A DNA stretch of 64,000 bases from a virus: positions 1 through 64,000 of the IMG/VR virus record IMGVR_UViG_3300017963_000203; one strand, 5' to 3'. Shown here in pieces: positions 2,662 through 14,296 of this stretch (positions are counted from its first letter, which is position 1; every line of letters begins with the position of its first letter). A program made the position numbers and the translations under genes. The notes beneath the pieces were generated by a model, which saw only the letters and a program-made list of their open reading frames with translations, was not told the DNA's origin and searched no databases.

Positions 2662-3032
2662 AGGAAAGGATTACCCTGCAAGAGTGGGTTGAGGCCATAC
2701 AGGATGTGGCCAGCATCGAGAGGGCGTTGCGGGAGACGTCGAACCCTCAGAAGCAACACCTTCTGTTTCGGGCAAGGCAGGAAGCGGTGGAACGTGTCCT
2801 GGCCATGCGCTACCTGACCGGGGCCACCACGGATCGGATCGAGGCGATCCTCGAAACCGAGCAGTGGGCGGCCGCCTTCTATCAAGAACTCTCGGAGGAG
2901 CCGTCGGATGATATGGGTGAAGCCTATTCACGACTTGAGAAACACGGAGAGTCGCCTCCTGACGCCGGGGAAGTTTCCTCCTGGTATAGCAGCGCATCTC
3001 CCTTGCGTAGAGAACCTGAAAAGCAGGGATAG
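2652..3032 (+). CDS. hypothetical protein
   Basis: ORF coupled to the rnhA stop; start chosen at ATG 2652. Confidence 0.6.
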   Translation: MGVEERITLQEWVEAIQDVASIERALRETSNPQKQHLLFRARQEAVERVLAMRYLTGATTDRIEAILETEQWAAAFYQELSEEPSDDMGEAYSRLEKHGESPPDAGEVSSWYSSASPLRREPEKQG

Positions 3033-3378
3033 AACCAGGAATACACTCTACGAAACGCCAACCACCGAATCACAAGCACGCTGCGTACGCGGCTGGGCGC
3101 CGCACATCGATACAGCGTTCTGCATCTCGGCATTTCACATTTCCTCGTTCTCGGTTCTTGACGACTGGGTTGAGTTCTTCGAGAAGTCTGTTCGGAAGAT
3201 CATTCGGAGCACCGATCTGCTGCTCGTCGTTGCCGTTCAGCGCGCCAGAACGGAAGACCTTCTCTTCCTGACTGACCTGCTGGACGCGAGAGCCAGGAAC
3301 GGTTTACCGACGATGGTGGACGACGGACGAGGAGACCGGTGGGTGGATGTCTACGAACAGGTCATCGAGGTGGGATGA
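2908..3378 (+). CDS. degenerate DnaC/IstB-like helicase loader
   Basis: C-terminal half resembles DnaC (STDLLLV...LTDLLDARARNGLPTMV), lies directly upstream of DnaB; no Walker A visible; start uncertain. Confidence 0.45.
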   Translation: MIWVKPIHDLRNTESRLLTPGKFPPGIAAHLPCVENLKSRDRTRNTLYETPTTESQARCVRGWAPHIDTAFCISAFHISSFSVLDDWVEFFEKSVRKIIRSTDLLLVVAVQRARTEDLLFLTDLLDARARNGLPTMVDDGRGDRWVDVYEQVIEVG

Positions 3379-4664
3379 TGGCGAAGAGGAAGCCGACGAT
3401 CGAGTCAAATCTTCTGACGCGCGTCGCCTGGAACCCGGAAGAAATGAAGGATCTCGAGCTTCGTGGCTTCGATCCGAATGCCTTGAGCGCACCCTATGCC
3501 GCCGCGTTCAAGGAGGCGACACGTTTCATGGTCATGTACGGAGAGTTCCCATCGGCCCAGACTCTGATGAGCCGGGTCAAGGGAATCGAAATTCAGCGGT
3601 CCTGTCCGAAGAGGAAAGCGATCGTCTACTGGGAGACCATTCGGTGGTGGCAATGGCGCAACGACCTGGTCGGCGTCATCCAGGAGGTCTCCGAGATGTT
3701 CCCGGACGAGCTGAAGGACAGTGACCAGTCGCTCGACCTTCCTATGATCACCCAGGCCGGCCTCACGAAGTTCTCGGAGGTGTCGGCCAAGTACGCCAGC
3801 GAAACGGAACGGCCGATCCTTCTCGCGGATGCAGTGGACGATCTGGTCCGGGAACAAGAAGATGCTGGGAGCATGCTCGCAATCCCCATCCCGTTCGAAT
3901 TCATTCAAGAGGAAATTCGCGGATTCAAGGCGGGCCAACTCTACATCGTTGCCGGCCGTCCCAAGACCGGCAAGACCTGGTTCGCTCTCATCTGCGCAGC
4001 CCACGCCCTGTCCCAGGGCTACAAGGTCCTGCTCACCTCCCTTGAGATGCGGTACATCGAAATCGCCAGACGCATGGCGTGCATCATCGGAAAGGTGTCC
4101 TACAACCGATGCGTCAAGCGATCATGGCGTCCGCGGGAGAAGAAGCGGTATTACGAAGTGCTGCGAAGCATCAAGAAAGGGAAGATCGGCCAGAGACTAC
4201 AGATCGTAGGGCCTGGGGTGGCGAAGGGTCCAGAAACCGTGGGCACGTTACACAAGGCGTTCGGTGCTCACTTCGTGGTCGTGGACGCCTTCTACAACAT
4301 GCAGTCCTCCGGGGAGAAGGAGTGGGAGCGCGTTCTTGCACTCATGCGCAAGTACCGACGCGTATCCCTACCGTCCGAGGCCGCGTGGATGCTCGTCACG
4401 CAATTCAACCGGGGCGGCCGCAGCCGGCGAGGGGCCAACCTGGACAACCTGGGCTTCTCCGATGCCATCGGGCAGGACGCCAACGCCCTCATGTACGTCG
4501 TGCGCCCAAATCACTTGAAGAAGGCCCGGCAGGTCGACCTGATCCTGGGCGAGGCACGGGAGGCCGACGACGCCGTCGCCTTCCGCCACTACTGGGACTT
4601 TGTGGAGATGAACTGGGAACCTGTAGGGGCCGTAGCCTACGGCTCTGACGACGAGGAGGTCTAA
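3375..4664 (+). CDS. dnaB: DnaB-like replicative helicase
   Basis: Walker A GRPKTGKT, SLEM, VVVD, QFNR, SDAIGQDA. Confidence 0.92.
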   Translation: MMAKRKPTIESNLLTRVAWNPEEMKDLELRGFDPNALSAPYAAAFKEATRFMVMYGEFPSAQTLMSRVKGIEIQRSCPKRKAIVYWETIRWWQWRNDLVGVIQEVSEMFPDELKDSDQSLDLPMITQAGLTKFSEVSAKYASETERPILLADAVDDLVREQEDAGSMLAIPIPFEFIQEEIRGFKAGQLYIVAGRPKTGKTWFALICAAHALSQGYKVLLTSLEMRYIEIARRMACIIGKVSYNRCVKRSWRPREKKRYYEVLRSIKKGKIGQRLQIVGPGVAKGPETVGTLHKAFGAHFVVVDAFYNMQSSGEKEWERVLALMRKYRRVSLPSEAAWMLVTQFNRGGRSRRGANLDNLGFSDAIGQDANALMYVVRPNHLKKARQVDLILGEAREADDAVAFRHYWDFVEMNWEPVGAVAYGSDDEEV

Positions 4665-5767
4665 TGGACGCCGCTAATCTGCGGAGCGTACTGGAGATGA
4701 TGGGGGCACGGCAGATCCGTCCGTCTGGCGCTGCCAGTTACTCCATCCACTGTTTCTTCCCAGGCCGACACAAGGGTGGCCGGGACCGCAAGCCGTCGAT
4801 GATCGCGTCCATCGACCCCACCGGAGCTTCCTGGTTGAAATGCTTCACATGCGGATACAACAAGACGCTCGCTCGAACCGTGAGAGAGATGTCGAGCCAA
4901 ACCCCCGGGGGCCGTCTCGCCGATCTCGCCGACTGGGTAGAGCGGAACGACGGAAAGATCCGTGGTGGCCCCATGGAGTTCCAAGAGAACAAGAGGAACT
5001 ATACGGAGCAGGCAAGAAGGCTCCTCGGCGTAAGAATGCCCCAGAGGGCCGTCGATTTTCTCAAGGAGAAAGGCATCTATGTCCGGGCCATCGTGGATCG
5101 ATACCTTCTGTGGGAGCCGGAAAAACGGGTCATCATCTTCCCCCACATCGTACGCCGTAAGGGACAGACCATCGTCATCGGTGCGCAGTGCAGAAAGCCC
5201 AGAAAGCCCAAGGGGGGCACGTCCAAGTACTGGCACCACTGGGAATACGACGCAAGATACCACCTCTACGGAGAGCATCTCCTGTCCGGCTGGCGCGGAG
5301 GCGTGATCCTCCTTGTTGAGGGTCAGCTCGATACCCTGCACTGCTGGCAGGAGAACGTGCCGGCCGTGGGGAACCTCGGGAAGGGATGGAACAGGTCCAA
5401 GGGCAAACTTCTCAGGAAATCCGGCATAAGAAGAGTGGTCCTGTTTTTTGACCCAGACGTCTACGAAGAGGAAGAATTTCCCATGGTCGTGTCCGATACG
5501 TTGAAACAGCTTCGCGAGGAGGGCATCGAGGCCGTGGAATACCGCGGAACCAAGGATCCCAAGTACTGTTCGCAGGACGAACTCCTGCATGCGCTGGAAA
5601 CCCCGTTGTTCAAAGGAGGAGTACATGGCCAAGAGGAAGGCAAGCGGTCTGGCCGGCATCAAGAACAAGATGAAGGAACGGCTCGACCCGAAGAACATGC
5701 CCGAAGAGCTGGGCATGATGGCCGGCGGCGCCCAAGACGCCGAAAACCAAGGCAGCTTCGGCCCTGA
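4664..5767 (+). CDS. dnaG: DNA primase (Zn finger + TOPRIM)
   Basis: CFFPGRH...CFTC zinc motif, VEGQLD and FDPD TOPRIM motifs; follows the helicase. Confidence 0.85.
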   Translation: MDAANLRSVLEMMGARQIRPSGAASYSIHCFFPGRHKGGRDRKPSMIASIDPTGASWLKCFTCGYNKTLARTVREMSSQTPGGRLADLADWVERNDGKIRGGPMEFQENKRNYTEQARRLLGVRMPQRAVDFLKEKGIYVRAIVDRYLLWEPEKRVIIFPHIVRRKGQTIVIGAQCRKPRKPKGGTSKYWHHWEYDARYHLYGEHLLSGWRGGVILLVEGQLDTLHCWQENVPAVGNLGKGWNRSKGKLLRKSGIRRVVLFFDPDVYEEEEFPMVVSDTLKQLREEGIEAVEYRGTKDPKYCSQDELLHALETPLFKGGVHGQEEGKRSGRHQEQDEGTARPEEHARRAGHDGRRRPRRRKPRQLRP

Positions 5768-7247
5768 CATCTGGAGCCGTATCTGGCCCCACAGGTCGCC
5801 GTCCATCCCCAACAGCAAGGGGGAGCGAGCCAAGTCCTGGGAATGGTCCCTGAGCGAAGGCGAGGATGGCGACTGCGTGCTCGCAGAGATGCCGCGGCCC
5901 ATCCCGGTCCACCAGGTGTTCATCGGGTGGAAGGAGACGAAGAAGGGCAACTGGTTCGTGAAGGAATACGTGCGTTGCCTCGCCCGCAAGTACGTCTACG
6001 ACAAGACGGCCAAGGTCAGCGTCCAGACGCCGACGAAGGTCGCCTGTCCCTTCTGCCAGGTCCTGGGCGAGGACCGCTGGAGGGCGATCCAGGTCGGCGG
6101 CGTGGTGGACATGCGCGACCAGGACGAACCCTTCGTGGACGCCAACGGAACCCAGATCGAGACTCCGCCTCGGATGCTCCTCCTCATCAACGACGCCGCG
6201 CAGAAGGCGGTCCTCATGGGCCTCCGGGAGCGGGCGGCTCGGAAGAAGAACCTGATCGGAACCATCTTCCACGTGACTCGGGCAACCGGCAAGAACACGT
6301 CGAGGGTGGGGACGAACTGGATCCCCGACCTGGACGAGGAAGTCCCCATCAAGGACATCAAGCAGGTCTACTTCCCGATCGACCTGGACATGGCGTATCC
6401 GATCTTCCACGAGAAAGCGCGCCACCCGTTCAACAAGGGCGAGATCAAGGAGCTGCTCGACCACATGCTCGAGCGCCACGTCATGCTCTCCCTGAAGCAC
6501 GGACACAAGGTTCGGAAGGGCTTCGTGGGGTTCGACGCCCACGGCGCGGCGTCCTACGGCATCGACCTGGACGCCCTGAGGGAGGCGGACGACGGAGAGG
6601 AAGCGCCCTCCAGCGAGGACACGGAGCACGACGTTCCGGCCAAGCGCGGCCTCCGCATCATGGGGAGCGCGAGCGACGGACCGAGCCTCAACGATCTCAC
6701 CGACAAGGGAGACGACGAGGAGAGCTCCGATGAGGAGAGATCCGAGGAACCCGAGGGAAGCAGCGACGAGGGCATGCTCGATCCCGAGGACGTGGCCAAG
6801 TACAACAACGACGAGATCAAGGCTCTCGCCAAGGAGTGGGGCATCAGCCTCAAGGGCGCCGGCCGCTCGGTGGACGCCAAAAGGCTCGTCGTCCTGACAA
6901 GCTCCGAGGGCTTCGACATGGAGGAGGGCGAGGCGAAAGCGTTGCTCGGACTGGTGGAGGAGGAAGCCGAGGAGGCCGAGGGAGAGAGCGAAGGCGAAGG
7001 CGAGGAGGAAGGCGAAGGCGAGGAGGAAGGCGTCGACGTGGACGCGCTCGCCGTGAAGCTCCTGAACAAGGACGAGACCTCCATCACGGAGGTACGGGAG
7101 GCCGCCGAGAAGTACGGCGCGGAGGTCGCTCGTGACGGCAAGGGCCGAGTCCTGCGGAAAAAGACCGTGGAGAACCTGGTCGCGCACCTGGGCGGCAACG
7201 GAGAGGGCTCCGAAGCGCCGAGCGACCACAACCCCTGGGACGACTGA
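5625..7247 (+). CDS. single-stranded DNA-binding protein (gp32-like) with long acidic C-terminus
   Basis: AGGAGG RBS; H...C...CPFC Zn site; acidic tail ending NPWDD; between primase and polymerase. Confidence 0.6.
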   Translation: MAKRKASGLAGIKNKMKERLDPKNMPEELGMMAGGAQDAENQGSFGPDIWSRIWPHRSPSIPNSKGERAKSWEWSLSEGEDGDCVLAEMPRPIPVHQVFIGWKETKKGNWFVKEYVRCLARKYVYDKTAKVSVQTPTKVACPFCQVLGEDRWRAIQVGGVVDMRDQDEPFVDANGTQIETPPRMLLLINDAAQKAVLMGLRERAARKKNLIGTIFHVTRATGKNTSRVGTNWIPDLDEEVPIKDIKQVYFPIDLDMAYPIFHEKARHPFNKGEIKELLDHMLERHVMLSLKHGHKVRKGFVGFDAHGAASYGIDLDALREADDGEEAPSSEDTEHDVPAKRGLRIMGSASDGPSLNDLTDKGDDEESSDEERSEEPEGSSDEGMLDPEDVAKYNNDEIKALAKEWGISLKGAGRSVDAKRLVVLTSSEGFDMEEGEAKALLGLVEEEAEEAEGESEGEGEEEGEGEEEGVDVDALAVKLLNKDETSITEVREAAEKYGAEVARDGKGRVLRKKTVENLVAHLGGNGEGSEAPSDHNPWDD

Positions 7248-8554
7248 TGAACGAATTGCGAATCCTCTACAACCTGATCGAGAGAGCAGGCGGGTTCGCT
7301 TTCGACTTCGAGGCAGTGGACGAGGAGGGTAAGCCGACCACGAATCCGCTTCGTGCGAAGCCTACCCTCCTGTCCATTGCCACCGGGGACAGGAAAGTCG
7401 TGGCCCTCTGCCTGGAGTGGAGCGACGAGGCGAAGAGATACCTCCGGTATCTTCTTAGCCAGCCCCACCTCGTGGCGGTGGCCCACTACGGTAACTATGA
7501 CTTTCCCGTAGCCCACTGGAACGGCATCGACCTCGAGGAGTCGGAGGCGACGTGGTCTGATACACGGCTTCTATGCTGGCTCCAGTTCGAGGACGACGAT
7601 CTCGGGCTGAAGCACCAGGTAATGAAACATCTCGACTACAAAATGCAGAGCTTCAAAAGCGCTGCCGAGTCGGACTTCGCCCAGCGTGCGAAGGACTTGA
7701 AGAAAGAGCTCAAGAGGCTCCCCATCGAGATGAGGAAACAACTTCAAGCAGCAAAACGGGATCTCAAGGCGCAACTGAAGGAGGAGAAACACGCCATCGA
7801 TACGGCGTGGCGAGGAAAGATCAAGGTCAAGGAGATCAACGCCAAGAAGAAGGAGGCGGCCGCCCATACAGATCTCATGATCTCCGACACAGAACTTCGT
7901 CTCCAAGAGGCAGCGGATGCCCGGGCCAAAGAGATCAAACACCTCATCAAGGAGAACGAAGCACTCTCCTGGAAGGTATTCCGGAAGTACGCTGTCGATG
8001 ACGCCAAGCAAACCTGGCGGCTATTCCGGAAGATGATGTCCTGGGTGAAGAAGGAGAAGATGCACCGTTGGCTCGACGTGGAGTTGGTGAACTATCGTGA
8101 ATCGATCATGATGGGAATTCGAGGGTCTTACGTGGACCAGACCCTCGCCGAGGAGATGATCGACGTGTCCGAGCCACTCCTCGATGAATTCCAGGCCAAC
8201 GTCTTCAACATGGCCAAAAGGGAGTTCAATCTCAACTCGGCCGTTGACATGGCCGAAGTGCTCTACCGTGATCTCGGGATTCGACCCCTCCCAGGAACTG
8301 GGCGTTCTCGACTGCCTGGGCTTCTCGACAAGCCATGGGGGTTCAACGCAGACAAGGAGGTCCTCGAGAGGCTCGACCATCCGATTGGGCAGGCCATTCT
8401 CGACTTTCGCTCCGTCCACACCATCTTCTCGAACTTCATGAAGGGGTTCCTGAAGCAAGCCCAAGAGGACCCGCTGGGCAAGAGCCGGGTCCACGTAAAT
8501 TTCAATTCCACCGGAACTGTGACCGGACGCTGGTCGTCCAGTACGCAGTCGTAG
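7247..8554 (+). CDS. polA: family A DNA polymerase, N-terminal chain (3'-5' exonuclease + thumb)
   Basis: ExoI FDFE, ExoII HYGNYDF, ExoIII YAVDDA, EFNLNS, ADKEVLE, ends RVHVNFNSTGTVTGRWSSSTQS*. Confidence 0.9.
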   Translation: MNELRILYNLIERAGGFAFDFEAVDEEGKPTTNPLRAKPTLLSIATGDRKVVALCLEWSDEAKRYLRYLLSQPHLVAVAHYGNYDFPVAHWNGIDLEESEATWSDTRLLCWLQFEDDDLGLKHQVMKHLDYKMQSFKSAAESDFAQRAKDLKKELKRLPIEMRKQLQAAKRDLKAQLKEEKHAIDTAWRGKIKVKEINAKKKEAAAHTDLMISDTELRLQEAADARAKEIKHLIKENEALSWKVFRKYAVDDAKQTWRLFRKMMSWVKKEKMHRWLDVELVNYRESIMMGIRGSYVDQTLAEEMIDVSEPLLDEFQANVFNMAKREFNLNSAVDMAEVLYRDLGIRPLPGTGRSRLPGLLDKPWGFNADKEVLERLDHPIGQAILDFRSVHTIFSNFMKGFLKQAQEDPLGKSRVHVNFNSTGTVTGRWSSSTQS

Positions 8555-8562
8555 GAGGGCCC

Positions 8563-9435
8563 ATGAGGATCATGAACGACCCGTTCATCACGGGACCTGA
8601 CAACATCATCCAGAACGACGGCGAACTGGACATCATCTTCCTTGGCGTGGGCTCGGCCTTCGCCAAGGAACACTTTCAGACGAGCATCCTCATCGTGAAG
8701 GGAAAGACCCACGTGCTCGTCGACTTCGGCATGGACGGCCCGCGCGCTCTCGCGAAGGTGGGCCTCGGCATGCAGGACATCGTGAACTTCCTCCCGACGC
8801 ACTCCCACTCCGACCACGTGGGCGGCGTCGAATCCCTGGCCCTGTTCAACCGCTACGTGGCGCAGCGGTTCATGAATAAGCCCAAGCTCAACTGCATCAT
8901 CACACCCGAGTACCAGAGGATTCTCTGGGACTACACGCTTCGTGGCGGCTTGGAGTGGAACGAGGAGCAGGCCGACGGACGCCGGCGACTGAGCTTCGGG
9001 GATTTCTTCAAGATCACAACACCCCGTTGGAAGACATCCATGCCCAGGGAGATCCACGAAGTGGGCGTCGGGGACCTGAAGCTGGAACTGTTTCGAACCA
9101 ACCACATCCCCGAGCAGGCGCCGAACTGGGAGGCGTCGTTCGTCTCCTACGGCCTGTTCATCGACGACCGTGTCTTTTTCTCCAGCGACTCCCAGTTCGA
9201 CCCGGAGCTCGTGCGCTACTACGACCAACAGTGCGGCCACAGGCACGTCGAGCACTTCTTCCACGATGTTCAGTTCTTCCCCGGCGCCGTGCACGCGCCA
9301 CTCGCTGATCTCAAGACCCTTCCTGCTGACATCAAGAAAAACATGACCCTCATGCACTATTCCGACGATTGGGGAAAGCAGGACATCTCTGACTTCGCCG
9401 GATGGGCCCAGGAAGGCGCCGCGTACCGTTTCTGA
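8563..9435 (+). CDS. apyc1: metallo-beta-lactamase-fold hydrolase, Apyc1-like (anti-Pycsar)
   Basis: GVGSAF, LVDFG, THSHSDHVGGVE, LW..TLRGGL, FFSSDSQFD, FHDVQFFPGAVHA, LMHY, colinear with the Apyc1 sequence as recalled; AGGAGG RBS. Confidence 0.8.
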   Translation: MRIMNDPFITGPDNIIQNDGELDIIFLGVGSAFAKEHFQTSILIVKGKTHVLVDFGMDGPRALAKVGLGMQDIVNFLPTHSHSDHVGGVESLALFNRYVAQRFMNKPKLNCIITPEYQRILWDYTLRGGLEWNEEQADGRRRLSFGDFFKITTPRWKTSMPREIHEVGVGDLKLELFRTNHIPEQAPNWEASFVSYGLFIDDRVFFSSDSQFDPELVRYYDQQCGHRHVEHFFHDVQFFPGAVHAPLADLKTLPADIKKNMTLMHYSDDWGKQDISDFAGWAQEGAAYRF

Positions 9436-9445
9436 GGATGGATCA

Positions 9446-9790
9446 ATGCCCCAATCGCCAGATCCGTACCCGATGTTCCTCGAGGCCATGAAGAAGGCAA
9501 CGTCGGGGATCGGAGAGAATATGCAGGGATTCTCCGTGTGCTTCGCCGCCAAGAAGATCGACCACCCAGACGGCGACAACTTCCCCGGAGTCCCTGACGA
9601 CCAGCTCGTCTACACATGGGCCCAAGGCGGGCCGCCGGTAGTCGTGAATATGATCTACCTCGAACTCGCTGTCAACCTGCTCGAGCAGTTCATACAGAGC
9701 AACCGTGGGAACCTCTACATCGCCATGGAAATGATGAAGGCGAAGGTTCTCGAGAAAATGATGGGCAGGGAACGACAAAGGAGACCCTGA
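9446..9790 (+). CDS. hypothetical protein inside the polA insertion
   Basis: 114-aa ORF with GAGG RBS; stop overlaps the next start (TGATG). Confidence 0.75.
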   Translation: MPQSPDPYPMFLEAMKKATSGIGENMQGFSVCFAAKKIDHPDGDNFPGVPDDQLVYTWAQGGPPVVVNMIYLELAVNLLEQFIQSNRGNLYIAMEMMKAKVLEKMMGRERQRRP

Positions 9791-10887
9791 TGGCGCAGTT
9801 GCAGAACGTACCATCGAGGTCCAAGCCGCAGGAGTATGACGAGAGGATACAAAAATTGGGGCCGCGCATCCGCATGATGTTCGTGGCCCCGCCTCCGGAC
9901 GAATTCTCGCCGGAGGGATACGATCTCATCGTCATTGACGAATCGCAGCTTGAACTCAGGCTCGGAGCCCAGTTCACCAAGGACCCGACTCTTCTTTCCG
10001 TCTACAAGCGGTTCGTGGACGTGGGCGGAATGGTCTTTTACGTCGGCGACATCCACGCCGAAACAGCGCATCGAATGGAGGTGCCAAGGAAGCTGGCGAA
10101 GAACCTCAACTTCGGGCTCATGTACGGAATGAGTCCGGCCAGCTTCGCGAGGTATGCCAAGCTCTACGTTCCTGGGACGAAAACCTACGACGTGCGATCC
10201 GCTGAGGTGTACGTCCAGGGCTTCCGTCGAACCTATTCGGGGGTCTTCAACTACCACGAGAAACTGCGAAGGCGCTGGAACGAAGGGAAGCGATCATTCC
10301 TCATGCTCAGTGGACGGTACCGCCACTTCCCCAAGTGGGCCCGCGTCTCCCCCGGTACCGTGTATAACTCGAAGATTCAGGGCTCGGCTGCCGACGTCAT
10401 GAAAGTCCAACTCTGGGCCATCAAGAAGTGGATCCTGTCCAATCCAGAATTCGAGGGACTAAAACCCTTGATTCAGGTTCACGACGAGTTTATCTTCGAG
10501 GTTCCAAAGCGGATCTCACAGAAGGCGGCTGTGGCGTTGAAATACGTCATGGAGTACCCGTTCTTCGATATGGACGTTCCGCTGCTGGCGTCAGCCAAGG
10601 TGTGTCAGAACTGGGCAGCCAAGGATGACGACAGCATCCCGGAGATAGGCACGTTCTACGCGCAAATCGACGGGAAGGACCGGCTATTCAGGCCGGACCA
10701 ATGGAAGAAGTATCTCGCTGTGGAAGAGAAGACCACGCAGAAGTCTTGCGTGGCCATGCTCTCCCCGAGACAGAAGGCGTGGGCCAGAACGCTCCTGCCC
10801 AAGAGCATTCCTACGTTCGGGGGGCGGAGCAAGGGGCTCAGTATCATGTCCCTCGATGAGTACAGGAAGAGAAAGGAGAGCCAATGA
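9790..10887 (+). CDS. polA: family A DNA polymerase, C-terminal chain (palm/fingers)
   Basis: Starts MAQLQNVP with own AAGGAG RBS; motif A DESQLELR, GDIH, motif B RKLAKNLNFGLMYG, IQGSAAD, motif C VHDE. Confidence 0.92.
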   Translation: MAQLQNVPSRSKPQEYDERIQKLGPRIRMMFVAPPPDEFSPEGYDLIVIDESQLELRLGAQFTKDPTLLSVYKRFVDVGGMVFYVGDIHAETAHRMEVPRKLAKNLNFGLMYGMSPASFARYAKLYVPGTKTYDVRSAEVYVQGFRRTYSGVFNYHEKLRRRWNEGKRSFLMLSGRYRHFPKWARVSPGTVYNSKIQGSAADVMKVQLWAIKKWILSNPEFEGLKPLIQVHDEFIFEVPKRISQKAAVALKYVMEYPFFDMDVPLLASAKVCQNWAAKDDDSIPEIGTFYAQIDGKDRLFRPDQWKKYLAVEEKTTQKSCVAMLSPRQKAWARTLLPKSIPTFGGRSKGLSIMSLDEYRKRKESQ

Positions 10888-11396
10888 TCACGGAACTCGA
10901 CGAGGCAAAAGGGCGTGTAGATGAGGTGATCCGGGACACGGAGCGATCAATCCGTGACGCCAAGGCACGCGGCGCTACCACGAAGCTCCTCTCCTACGAA
11001 GACATGTTCCGCCGCATCCTCGAGAACGCCAGGAAGGATCCGAGGATCGGCCCCAAATACCGGAAGGCGCTCAACGAGTACGCTGAGAGCGAGTACAAGA
11101 AACTCGCCCGGGCGGAGGGATTCAGCGAGCACGTGGTCACGGACGCAAGCGTGTTACGCGGGTACGTCGTCCACCTCCTGATTCGCGTGACGAGCGGAGA
11201 GATCGAAGAGATCACGCCATACGCCGACGAGCGAATCGCAATCGCCAAGTTCAACGAGTGGGCAAAGGAATACGGCCTTCCCACCGCCCAGGAGATCCGC
11301 ATCTTCGAGGCCAAGAAGGACGCCGAAGAGAAGGATCACCCGTTGTACGTCTCTGACCACATGGGAAGCGGGGTGTTCACATGCCCGATCCAGTAG
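10884..11396 (+). CDS. hypothetical protein
   Basis: AGGAG RBS, ATGA-coupled to polA. Confidence 0.75.
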   Translation: MITELDEAKGRVDEVIRDTERSIRDAKARGATTKLLSYEDMFRRILENARKDPRIGPKYRKALNEYAESEYKKLARAEGFSEHVVTDASVLRGYVVHLLIRVTSGEIEEITPYADERIAIAKFNEWAKEYGLPTAQEIRIFEAKKDAEEKDHPLYVSDHMGSGVFTCPIQ

Positions 11397-11785
11397 ACGT
11401 CGAGAAGGATCTGTTCGGCCACCTCGCGGCGGCACATCTCAGAACAGGGAACATGATCCGACTTCGCAGCAGGACCGATCACCGGGATCTGGTCCTGCTC
11501 TCGACCGAGGACAACGTGGAGTACCGCGTCAAGGAGATCGACACCAAGAACGAGTGCGATCTCGTAAACACTCCGTTCGGGTCCGCCAGAGACGCCGTGA
11601 GCCGGCTCTTCGACGTCAACCGTCAGTGGCGAGTCCCGCTGGGAGACGTGGAGTTCACGGACCGCGAGGGCGGCATAGCCGTCACCTGGCGGCACCTGAA
11701 AGCCAACATGCGTACACTCAAATGGATCCTGGAGGATGACGGCTCCGTCTTCTCCGAAATCTTGGGGGGCGCCAAGAAGGCATGA
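11381..11785 (+). CDS. hypothetical protein
   Basis: Tightly packed operon ORF. Confidence 0.65.
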   Translation: MPDPVDVEKDLFGHLAAAHLRTGNMIRLRSRTDHRDLVLLSTEDNVEYRVKEIDTKNECDLVNTPFGSARDAVSRLFDVNRQWRVPLGDVEFTDREGGIAVTWRHLKANMRTLKWILEDDGSVFSEILGGAKKA

Positions 11786-12027: not shown

Positions 12028-12713
12028 ACGAGAGTCCTGTCAGCGGCGGCTTCCAGATCCAGCACGTGACGGGCTTCTTCGATCCCCGCAAGTGGGGGTC
12101 GGCCCTGAACGAGTTCAATCGGCTCATGAAGAGCGGCAAGTATCGAGCAGCCTATCGACGGCTCAACCGGATCGCTGACTTTCACGCCAAACGGCTCAGA
12201 AACGTCATCGAGAAGACCCAGAAGTTCCCGGTCGCCTGTGGCGATACGGGGTGTAACCATTGCTGTCGCGTGCTCATGACAACGGCCTCCAGGCTCGAGG
12301 CGAGTGTTATCCGGGGGTCGTACCGCCGCTTACCTCAGGACGTCCAGGCTTACGTGGACGACCGTGCCCGTGATGAGGAGAAGATCCTCAACCGAGCAGC
12401 GGCCATTCTTGGATGGCCCAACGGAGTGACGCGTCAGAACAGAGATGCCGTGGCCGATCTCTATACATCCATCGGTGGCCGATGCATCTTTCTCGGCCGA
12501 GACGGAGGATGCCTGATCTACCAGGACCGCCCGTGGGTGTGCCGGATCATCCAGATCATCGGGCCCAGGTGTTTGATGGGTCAGATGCGCCAAGCGCCAA
12601 TCCACTACGGACTCGTTCAGTTCCTGAACTCCGTAGCTGAGAACAGCGGCGAAGAACCCAACCACTTCGTGGAGATCGTCCGCGCCATGAGCCGGATCGT
12701 TCTCCCGTCGTGA
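11982..12713 (+). CDS. YkgJ/FliB-family CxxxCxxCC cysteine-cluster protein
   Basis: CGDTGCNHCC ... CIFL..DGGCLIYQDRPWVCR. Confidence 0.8.
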   Translation: MRTFNEEIQNLGQRLNESPVSGGFQIQHVTGFFDPRKWGSALNEFNRLMKSGKYRAAYRRLNRIADFHAKRLRNVIEKTQKFPVACGDTGCNHCCRVLMTTASRLEASVIRGSYRRLPQDVQAYVDDRARDEEKILNRAAAILGWPNGVTRQNRDAVADLYTSIGGRCIFLGRDGGCLIYQDRPWVCRIIQIIGPRCLMGQMRQAPIHYGLVQFLNSVAENSGEEPNHFVEIVRAMSRIVLPS

Positions 12714-12745
12714 CCAAGACGAGGCCAATCAGGGTAGGAGGCAGC

Positions 12746-14296
12746 ATGGCCTTCAAGAGACAGGGTGCGCTCATCGTACCCGAATCTGAGTTCACTCGGC
12801 GCCTGGAGAAGCGCCTGAGCGTGTCTGGAACCGATTACATGGGCAAAGAGTACTCGTTCCAAGTGTTTCGATATCGAAATGGCGGTGTGCTCGTACCCAG
12901 GTACACCCTCGGTCCGGGACATGCCATCCTGGCGTCTGGCGGTACACTGCGCCCCACACCAGAGTTCCCACGATTCAAGGGGCATCTGTGGCCAGAGCAG
13001 ATGGAGGGGGCCGAGAGGGCGTTCAGCTACCTCAAAACGGAGCATGGCGTCTTCCTCAACGCCGAGCCGGGGAGCGGAAAGACGGTAGCAGCCATTTGGC
13101 TGGCTGCGGTGCTGAAGCCAAATCGTGTTCTGGTCTTGGTCGATCAGGACAACCTGGCTGACCAGTGGACGAAACGAATCCTCGAGTACGCTCCTGATGC
13201 AACTGTCACCTACATCATGCCCCTCGCCTCTCAGCGCATGCTTCACAAGAAGTACGATCAGCGGAGGATGCTGGCCGGCATCCAACGTCACGATCTGCGC
13301 GGAGACTATATCATCTGCATGACGCAGAGCCTCATTGCTCATCCACGCAGCATCCAGGCCGATCTGCTCATCGTGGACGAGTGTCACGTCTTCTCTGCGC
13401 CCACCTTCAGCAACGCCATCTTCAACATTGACTTCTATTACTCCCTCGCCCTCAGCGCCAACAACACGCGTCCAGACGGGCTCGAGTGGATTTTTCGAGA
13501 GATGCTTGGGCACACCAAGGTCGAGATGAAAGGAAAGCGTCTGCCAGCCCGCGCGGAGTTTTACCCCGTCTCGACCCAGTTCCTTAGCTGGGACGACCCC
13601 GTCGTCAGCGACATGGGAAACTGGTTTCGGAAGCTGTGGTGCACTCGGTACAAGAAGCAGACCACGCGATACGATTGCAGCCTCTGCCACATGACGAAGG
13701 AGTTTGGAAGCACGGAGCTCTCGGTCATCACCCGCAGATGTGGGAGCTTCTGGAAACACGACGAATGGGACGAGAATTCTCTCGAGCGTCACCTCGGTCG
13801 TGATCCGAAATACACCGGGTGGCTTCTCGACACGCTCTCCACATTTCTCAAGGCCAAGCGAGACATCTTCGTTTTCACCAGGCTGCGCGAACCCCTGGAG
13901 CGCCTGCATGGCCTCATAGGGATGGACCTCGGCCCTGTGTCTGGACTCTACATGGGCCACGCAACATCTGCCAAAGACCGCGACCGCAACGCCAGAGCGC
14001 TCAGGAAGCCCATCACCCTGTGCACGTATCAAAAAGCGGGCAAGGGCCTCGACGTGGCTCACAAGGATGGGATCCTCTTCGCCAGTCCCGTGTCCAAAAG
14101 TCGGCTCAATCAGGTCATAGGAAGAGTGGAGAGGGCTCTCCGCGGGAAGAGCCGGCCAGTCGTAATACACCCGATCGTGCCTTTCGTGACGAGCAAAGCC
14201 CGTCTGCGAGGGTGCGTGAAGTGGTATCAGGAGAACCAGTATGACCACAAGATCCACCCAGTTCTCGCCGGTTGTTTTAGAAATGACCGCTACTAA
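12746..14296 (+). CDS. superfamily 2 DNA helicase (UvsW/XPB-like)
   Basis: PGSGKT, DECH, LSA, GLD, QVIGRVER; AGGAGG RBS. Confidence 0.9.
   Translation: MAFKRQGALIVPESEFTRRLEKRLSVSGTDYMGKEYSFQVFRYRNGGVLVPRYTLGPGHAILASGGTLRPTPEFPRFKGHLWPEQMEGAERAFSYLKTEHGVFLNAEPGSGKTVAAIWLAAVLKPNRVLVLVDQDNLADQWTKRILEYAPDATVTYIMPLASQRMLHKKYDQRRMLAGIQRHDLRGDYIICMTQSLIAHPRSIQADLLIVDECHVFSAPTFSNAIFNIDFYYSLALSANNTRPDGLEWIFREMLGHTKVEMKGKRLPARAEFYPVSTQFLSWDDPVVSDMGNWFRKLWCTRYKKQTTRYDCSLCHMTKEFGSTELSVITRRCGSFWKHDEWDENSLERHLGRDPKYTGWLLDTLSTFLKAKRDIFVFTRLREPLERLHGLIGMDLGPVSGLYMGHATSAKDRDRNARALRKPITLCTYQKAGKGLDVAHKDGILFASPVSKSRLNQVIGRVERALRGKSRPVVIHPIVPFVTSKARLRGCVKWYQENQYDHKIHPVLAGCFRNDRY

Follow-up and report, generated by a model that had tools for sequence, protein, structure and literature searches.

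The stretch of DNA analyzed here, referred to as the window, is the first 64 kb (positions 1 to 64,000) of the 130.9-kb IMG/VR virus record IMGVR_UViG_3300017963_000203, the completeness of which was estimated by CheckV at 68%. In the window, the gene for a family A DNA polymerase (PolA) lies on the plus strand in two parts, with two other complete genes between them. The upstream part, polN (7247-8554, 435 amino acids (aa)), encodes a putative 3'-5' exonuclease domain and the first third of the polymerase domain, and its product ends with TGRWSSSTQS followed by a TAG codon. The downstream part, polC (9790-10887, 365 aa), starts with MAQLQNVP and encodes the remaining polymerase domain with motifs A, B, and C. 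The stop at 8552-8554 and the fresh start at 9790 divide the polymerase domain into two polypeptides. The gap is filled, also on the plus strand, by an Apyc1-like gene (8563-9435, 290 aa) for a metallo-beta-lactamase (MBL)-fold phosphodiesterase, a probable anti-Pycsar nuclease, and by a small open reading frame (ORF; 9446-9790, 114 aa), the stop TGA of which overlaps the ATG of polC as TGATG. Both the cut between TGRWSSS and LQNVP and the presence of two complete genes in the gap had been proposed in a first-pass annotation of the window, and they were confirmed at these positions by the ORF listing and by direct reading.

The spacers around the Apyc1-like gene are 8 nt on the polN side and 10 nt on the small-ORF side, and all genes of the gap region carry a Shine-Dalgarno-like sequence. 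The TAG of polN is itself part of such a sequence (TAGGAGG, 8552-8558, plus strand), located 4 nt upstream of the ATG of the Apyc1-like gene, and GAGGA is found ahead of the small ORF at 9446. The downstream part has, as had been claimed, its own ribosome-binding site, AAGGAG at 9778-9783, 6 nt ahead of the ATG.

Together, the two parts cover the whole of a PolA. PF00476 (DNA_pol_A) was matched at positions 13-124 in polN (E 3e-16, 59.7 bits) and at positions 128-380 in polC (E 2.4e-39, 135.8 bits), both above the curated cut-off of 34.3 bits, and on the NCBIfam Pol I profile polN extends up to position 633 of 889 and polC starts from 637. Since these profile positions are nearly contiguous, the cut takes nothing away. 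Furthermore, polN matches phrog_17 (DNA polymerase, E 3e-36), and its match to PF01612 (3'-5' exonuclease) is just under the cut-off (23.5 versus 23.6 bits), while polC aligns with the Klenow fragment (E 2.5e-29). In the polN alignment (A3), the exonuclease acidic residues D20, E22, D85, and D251/D252 are invariant. Likewise, D50, SQLELR (S52-R57), RKLAKNLNFGL.YGM (R100-G113), and QVHDE (H231-E233) are invariant in the polC alignment (A4); we take these to represent motifs A (DxSQxELR), B (RxxAKxxNFGxxYG), and C (HDE).

By scanning IMG/VR and JGI metagenome contigs, we obtained 19 distinct related loci; one of the two search patterns used, MAQLQN[VI]P, retrieves split forms only. With the window included, 14 distinct loci are split (the window, L001, which is the same contig as L013, L007-L012, L014, L015, L017-L019, and L022), and as judged from tblastn and ORF reading, all 14 distinct loci that show the junction have the same break, with polC identities to the window from 87% down to 56%. 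In the ten loci in which the junction was read, window included, polN ends with TGRW(S/T/A)SS plus one to three residues and polC starts with MAQLQN(V/I)PSR, the usual xPN being replaced by MAQ; the stop, the start, and the ribosome-binding site are kept at both junctions. The TAGGAG-type junction at the polN stop is also present in L008, L022, L019, L009, and L017, and in L007 the junction reads TAGTAGGAG. Loci that are continuous at this site were also obtained: L016 (43% identity) is in one frame, and L002 (35%) has an intact open frame of 636 aa, while in L005 and L006 the TGR/LQN site is uninterrupted and a second insertion follows farther along the gene. Among isolated phages, a DNA search with the region gave no match, and the best identity in a protein search with polC was approximately 31%.

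We also searched 1.84 billion cluster representatives for polC with HMMER, that is, without the split-only pattern. Among the best matches were dozens of intact PolAs of 720-870 aa (750-870 aa for the nearest intact relatives), which are 42-50% identical to polC and read TGRxSSxxPNLQNIPSR; residue 3 of polC aligns to their position 420-520. The representatives of the split clade were P0019 (367 aa, aligned over 1-363), P0020 (with an insert), and P0018 (a fragment). The comparison with relatives having an intact polA, which the first-pass annotation had suggested, was thereby made in a maximum-likelihood tree of the polC-equivalent part (53 rows; the eight short rows P0039, P0046, P0053, P0057-P0060, and P0067 were excluded, and P0018 is not in it). 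All ten split rows fell into one clade (Shimodaira-Hasegawa-like approximate likelihood ratio test (SH-aLRT) support 95), nested among rows intact at the site. Its sister clade, P0045, P0054, and P0056 (joint support 96), is intact, with a longer loop exactly at the place of the break. These three proteins have some five extra residues in the loop that connects TGRxSS with QN and no longer show the PNL consensus. Judging from these alignments, the loop at the break evidently tolerates change, the break is old and clade-wide, and a single fission is compatible with the tree.

The sequence divergence between relatives points to maintenance of both halves. Pairwise Nei-Gojobori comparisons among the window, L007, L008, L022, L019, and L015, in which the synonymous rate (dS) was at or above ~1 and hence saturated, gave ratios of the nonsynonymous to the synonymous rate (dN/dS) of 0.08-0.12 for polN (versus L007, L008, and L022), 0.06-0.10 for polC, 0.10-0.23 for the small ORF, and 0.07 for the Apyc1-like gene (versus L019). 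These values indicate purifying selection on all four genes. As for the assembly, Logan contigs from two runs of two studies contain 7008-11100 and 7073-11100, respectively, each in one piece and with 0 differing letters; either of these runs may be the source sample, and such contigs show presence, not absence. Two further runs (X3 and X4) had just short identical pieces at low depth, and no conclusion on habitat or absence is drawn from them.

The 290-aa protein of the gap matched PF23023 (Anti-Pycsar_Apyc1; E 4.9e-31, 108.5 bits, cut-off 50), and over residues 22-270 it is similar to the solved Apyc1 chains 7u2r (E 9e-34), 7u2s (E 2e-30), and 7t28 (E 5e-29). The metal-binding HxHxDH is present, with THSHSDHVGG aligned to THIHGDHVGG of 7u2r. 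The protein is thus a probable Apyc1-type cyclic-nucleotide phosphodiesterase, that is, an anti-Pycsar nuclease. In the window, the Apyc1 frame is open for 228 nt before its ATG (8335-8562), overlapping the end of polN; this open stretch, which L019 does not share, probably results from the high G+C content. Twelve loci have a visible interval upstream of the small ORF, and four of them (the window, L019, L014, and L018) have Apyc1; the gene was not found in the 136-kb split record G001. Over shared columns, Apyc1 proteins of one subclade have identities of 0.81 and 0.83, and those of different subclades 0.71-0.77; the corresponding polC values are 0.80 and 0.88 inside a subclade and 0.70-0.75 across subclades. 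Because its divergence tracks that of the polymerase and it is present in just four of the 12 loci, Apyc1 would be an old, dispensable resident, which was probably in the gap before the two subclades parted and has been lost several times since. Alternatively, recombination between relatives would give the same pattern of Apyc1 identities.

In the relatives, the gap varies from ~350 to ~1660 nt and holds one to four genes of differing content. The small ORF is alone in the gap of L007, L008, L022, and L001. In L010 (5465-5662) and L011 (3901-4098), a 65-aa PF12843 protein (QSregVF_b, E 9e-9) is encoded between polN and the small ORF, in the place of Apyc1. L019 has two short ORFs between polN and Apyc1 (1208-1432 and 1443-1628; 74 and 61 aa), neither with a Pfam match; the 61-aa ORF has two Cys-x-x-Cys pairs and is zinc-ribbon-like. 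L009 (1689-2120) and L017 (1292-1765) have an ORF of 143-157 aa, also with no Pfam match, which separates the small ORF from polC; these are the only loci in which the two do not adjoin. Scans of the gap ORFs from the window, L019, L010, L009, and L017 gave no homing endonuclease domain of the HNH, GIY-YIG, or LAGLIDADG type.

In contrast to the other gap genes, which vary from locus to locus, all 14 split loci have the small ORF in their gap (alignment A2, consisting of 13 sequences, plus an N-terminally cut copy in L012). It is specific to this clade, across which its size is 105-118 aa, and 17 family members, all of 105-116 aa and unnamed, were found in the protein database. Scans of the family gave no Pfam match at E<=1 (0 of 13 members) and no PHROG or NCBIfam match. 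The AlphaFold2 (AF2) model of the small protein has a predicted local distance difference test score (pLDDT) of 81 and is of helix-strand-strand-helix-helix form. The highest feature score obtained from the ESM Atlas was 0.78, short of a level that shuffled proteins also reach. A profile of the family matched in the split record G001 and in none of three records with a PolA intact at the site (G002, G003, and G004; 63-78% complete). In most loci, the stop of the small ORF overlaps or abuts the start of polC, and in L001 the overlap is ~30 nt. Among proteins of 204-2000 aa, no fused form of the small ORF was found, which is weak evidence. A prediction of the complex of polN, polC, and the small protein (from alignments A3, A4, and A2) scored 0.00 against a mark of 0.32; this is no answer and weighs neither way. 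The small protein probably acts with the split enzyme, for example in its assembly or as a third subunit. More tentatively, and with the odds against it in our estimation, it may be an obligatory third component, a clasp or assembly factor that replaces the lost peptide bond, in which case the gap would be a protected accessory slot with guaranteed co-expression. This is suggested because the small ORF occurs in 14 of 14 split loci but in 0 of 3 intact records, is under purifying selection, and in most loci overlaps or abuts polC by its stop.

The position of the break can be placed on a structure. The AF2 model of P0021, an intact relative that is 50% identical to polC (22-sequence alignment, mean pLDDT 91.7), has a strand at 452-454 after TGR, followed by a coil at 455-476; the block confidence is 81-84 at the coil, compared with 87 just before it and 89 or more after it. 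In this model, the break corresponds to the start of the coil that follows the TGRxSS strand, and so it behaves like a nick in a loop. Minor-groove contacts to the primer strand are made in Klentaq and Klenow by the TGR arginine and by the Gln and Asn within LQN. By analogy with these contacts, both chains would contribute to the DNA-binding surface.

Taken together, we consider that the PolA of this clade is likely, with a probability of roughly 0.8, a non-covalent two-chain polymerase that arose from one old fission. In the 130.9-kb record, which is 68% complete, no second polymerase was detected, there being no further PF00476 match and no PF00136 match. A single old fission would have divided the only recognisable DNA polymerase gene of the phage, so that the enzyme would now consist of two proteins. 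The two chains would fold together without a covalent link, using the contacts that palm, thumb, and fingers normally make within a single molecule, and the small protein may assist or join the complex. The gap would serve as a landing place for accessory genes, in the window for the Apyc1-type phosphodiesterase, and the block would be transcribed as one unit with the neighboring primase and helicase genes. Apyc1 would degrade the cyclic mononucleotide alarm signals early in infection and blunt a Pycsar-type defence.

Several observations weigh against this interpretation. The pattern-biased locus search inflates the share of split loci, and only about three split-clade representatives are among the best 150 of the HMMER search. 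The incomplete record may hide another polymerase. The new termini are almost tail-free in the ten loci read (one to three residues in polN and none in polC), whereas tails are essential for activity in the split NrdA of phage Aeh1, according to the accessible part of PMC3045599. The model of the small protein has no fold match at E<=0.001 in PDB or BFVD. Finally, in the portion of PMC9117128 available, close MBL relatives of Apyc1 are described as preferring cyclic AMP and cyclic GMP (cAMP and cGMP), and Apyc1, which hydrolyses cyclic CMP and cyclic UMP (cCMP/cUMP) with relaxed base specificity, is told apart there from the related MBL phosphodiesterases by assay of its specificity, not by sequence.

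How polA came to be broken is a separate question from the two-chain reading, and selfish elements near the break bear on it. Four PolAs related to the split clade (P0032, P0051, P0063, and P0064) have inteins of 143-432 aa, with a Cys directly after TGRx(S/A) and a His-Asn before Ser-x-x-PNLQNIP. Of these, P0032 and P0063 were scanned, and in both the Pfam Intein_splicing match is just above the cut-off. The intein site is two residues upstream of the break: the intein follows the first Ser of the SSS run, and the break follows the third. In addition, P0027 (405 aa) has a 34-residue head ending with His-Asn-Ser directly ahead of the PNLQ motif, resembling the C-piece of a naturally split intein at that position of PolA. 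In the polymerase of L012 (polC at 318-2393, 692 aa), a 326-residue intein with LAGLIDADG_3, which starts with Cys and ends with His-Asn-Cys, lies in motif B between NFGL and YGM, so that this phage has a gene break and an intein in one polymerase. The insert of P0018 ends with His-Asn at the same spot as that of L012, and the Cys-initiated insert of P0020 starts five residues earlier, after RKLAK. In-frame inserts of ~300 aa near motif B, with the protein matched as two stretches, are found in L005 (3484-6873), L006 (3457-6732), P0020, P0031, P0034, P0049, and P0052; in the PolAs that are continuous at TGR/LQN, these are probably inteins.

One possible explanation of the fission is that an intein or homing-endonuclease element targeting the coding sequence of TGRxSS/PNLQNIP fractured polA and then disappeared, so that two genes and the small ORF remained. 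Because the codons around the break are targeted by selfish elements, such an element is a plausible cause of the fission, and there is no remnant as proof. The inteins of four related PolAs two residues from the break, the head of P0027, and the motif-B inteins of the same polymerase clade (L012, with its LAGLIDADG domain) argue for it. However, none of polN, polC, and the gap genes gave a Hint or intein match, a search for a dead-intein clasp was negative on both chains, polN stops one to three residues past the motif and polC begins at the motif, and the break is offset by two residues from the insertion point of the inteins. For P0027, which lacks genomic context, the gene call may instead start inside an ordinary intein. 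We also considered the small ORF as a Hint remnant and rejected it, since the family profile against the site-A inteins gave a probability of 0.06%. We therefore hold this origin to be possible, although rather unlikely.

The first-pass annotation explained the split differently, by the insertion of an anti-defence cassette that duplicated its target site, made PolA two-chained, and tied the expression of the anti-defence gene to replication. The degenerate 12-nt direct repeat on which this was based is present at the positions given there (8543-8554 and 9793-9804, both on the plus strand), but it matches in only nine of 12 letters and is best regarded as a chance match. As a control, 5000 pairs of 30-nt segments were drawn at random from the window; their best 12-mer match was at least nine of 12 in 11.9% of the pairs, and at the same junctions of nine related split loci the best 12-mer match was only six to eight of 12, which is the random mode. 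A repeat that is at chance level and absent in nine relatives gives no evidence for a transposition-type insertion. The break also occurs without Apyc1 in eight of the 12 loci with a visible interval, which speaks against the anti-defence gene as the cause of the split, and it is common to a clade in which polC identities go down to about 56-60%, which speaks against a recent event. Neither a recent insertion with target-site duplication nor a causal role of the anti-defence gene is supported by these comparisons.

As a whole, this scenario, in which a cassette with Apyc1 was inserted in an intact polA with target-site duplication, made the split, and tied Apyc1 to replication, is regarded by us as improbable. 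In its favor, Apyc1 immediately precedes the small ORF in the window, L019, L014, and L018, which represent two subclades, and its identity pattern mirrors that of polC across both; Apyc1 may have occupied the gap in the common ancestor of both subclades, and a founding cassette may have consisted of Apyc1 plus the small ORF. However, besides the chance level of the repeat and its absence from the nine relatives, and besides the eight loci broken without Apyc1, a third subclade (L009 and L017) and the 136-kb record G001 are without Apyc1, and the gap ORFs scanned gave no transposase, recombinase, or endonuclease domain. What stands of the claim that Apyc1 is tied to replication is the arrangement itself, same-stranded and tightly packed with replication genes, but not its origin by insertion.

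It is very improbable that the two parts are rejoined as one chain, be it by DNA excision, RNA splicing, protein splicing, or ribosomal bypass. Introns and inteins are known in phage polymerase genes, according to the section of PMC10580990 available, inteins occur in the relatives described here, and contigs may miss rare joined molecules. However, Rfam gave 0 matches at E<=1 in 8300-10000, with no group I or group II intron core, and the non-coding space is just the two spacers of 8 and 10 nt. There is no Hint or intein Pfam match in polN, polC, Apyc1, or the small ORF; these Pfam and Rfam scans support the view of the first-pass annotation that PolA is two-chained with neither intein nor intron. 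The stop, start, and ribosome-binding site kept at both junctions in the ten loci, and the purifying selection on the gap genes, also argue against rejoining, and a gap that varies from ~350 to ~1660 nt in length and in content fits poorly with a conserved splicing or bypass signal. Nothing was found in favor of the excisable or bypassed cassette that had been offered as an alternative, and no contig in the four Logan runs joins 8549 and 9800. Read-through of the TAG of polN was considered separately: the next in-frame stop is three codons on, and hence no fusion product would result.

A decaying pseudogene or an assembly artefact, both raised in the first-pass annotation, can be set aside as having next to no probability, since the interruption of an essential motif is the sole point for either, whereas the dN/dS of ~0.1 (with saturated dS) and the invariance of every catalytic motif speak against decay, and a layout common to 14 loci of different samples and Logan contigs that span both junctions and reproduce the window exactly speak against misassembly.

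The split gene is located among other replication genes, with a primase at 4664-5767 (phrog_47) and a helicase at 12710-14296 (phrog_16). A consensus scan, which is a weak method, gave no promoter-like or terminator-like site on the plus strand in 6800-11600. Between the primase and polN, 5589-7247 of the window encodes a 552-aa protein with a long acidic C-terminal part rich in Glu and Asp; its sole PHROG match is weak (E 6e-4) and of unknown function, and its counterpart in L001 is at 2915-4339 (474 aa). The listed start of this protein overlaps the primase ORF by ~180 nt, and the true start may be later.

Family A polymerases are the textbook example of single-chain enzymes. What is described here, a variant of the 'genes in pieces' kind, is an old, clade-wide, intein-free, and tail-free split of PolA in a core motif, with a faithful companion gene and a gap that hosts accessory genes. 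A split under strong selection with no tail, intein, or intron would be a natural experiment on the extent to which the palm must be covalently continuous, and its halves are possible split-polymerase parts for engineering. The constantly present small gap protein is a concrete candidate for an assembly factor, and if it is indeed a third component, this clade replicates with a three-gene family A polymerase. The intact, the intein-bearing, the probably split-intein, and the intein-free split forms around the same few codons would make up a series on gene fracture by selfish elements. Furthermore, the placement of Apyc1 suggests that such a gap can host counter-defence genes.

Splits of other phage genes have been described. 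Petrov et al. reportedly found, in 2006, that the family B polymerase of T4-like phages can be split into genes 43A and 43B. The enzyme described here belongs to family A. Fractured genes with split inteins and a free-standing endonuclease are said to have been described by Dassa et al. in 2009. Such genes are likewise split at sites of selfish elements, but no split-intein halves were found in the present clade, and since neither chain has one, trans-splicing is not expected. The nrdA-a/mobE/nrdA-b arrangement of Aeromonas phage Aeh1, an example of 'genes in pieces' (Crona et al. 2011, PMC3045599; reportedly also Friedrich et al. 2007), is the functional model for such a rescue. There, too, the essential gene of a replication-related enzyme is fragmented in a conserved region and is rescued non-covalently, with neither RNA nor protein splicing, as far as the available part of PMC3045599 describes it. 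However, the gap gene of Aeh1 is a homing endonuclease and the terminal tails are essential (the same part of PMC3045599), while the present loci have neither an endonuclease domain nor tails.

Among PolAs, the portions available of the 2023 reclassification by Czernecki et al. describe just a split at the boundary of the exonuclease and polymerase domains, called there the first in PolAs (PMC10201439). It concerns T7-like cyanophages of the S-SBP1/S-TIP37 type, in which two genes each encode a part of PolA and reassembly of their products is predicted (PMC10201439 and PMC12695635, both in part). According to the same portions, that split was caused by a 1-nt deletion at the domain boundary, and the two genes overlap with none between them. 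In contrast, the cut described here interrupts a near-universal motif of the polymerase domain itself, and one to four genes occupy the gap. Inteins were reported in TerL and RNR of phiCbK, but not in its PolA (PMC3556154), and an overview of jumbo phages mentions a split Pol III alpha, but not a split PolA (PMC7824862). In a literature search, for which most subscription journals were out of reach, no PolA cut between TGRxSS and LQNxP was found.

The Apyc1 of Bacillus phage SBSphiJ (Hobbs et al. 2022), as covered by the accessible text of PMC9117128, shares the MBL fold, the HxHxDH, and full-length similarity with the protein of the window. The latter is longer (290 aa, compared with ~245-257 aa) and comes from a distant, uncultured, GC-rich phage, in which it is encoded inside a split polymerase gene.

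The closest published layout is that of MEP401 and MEP402, phages of OM43 related to Zobellviridae, in which PolA is encoded by ORF13 and ORF15 with the small unknown ORF14 between them (record OP830906; PMC10580990, in part). As in the present clade, MEP401 has its cut within the polymerase domain and closely spaced genes, and most relatives have the split as well, judging from the text available of PMC10580990. However, the break of MEP401 is ~17 residues further downstream, after PNLQNF and before motif A, whereas the present one is between TGRxSS and LQN. ORF14 (78 aa) is unrelated to the small-ORF family described here (hhalign probability 0.5%), no anti-defence gene is reported for the MEP401 gap in that text, and its polymerase is just distantly related. 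Split phage polymerases thus prove to be recurrent, and it is the site of the break, the missing clasp, and the companion gene that set the present case apart.

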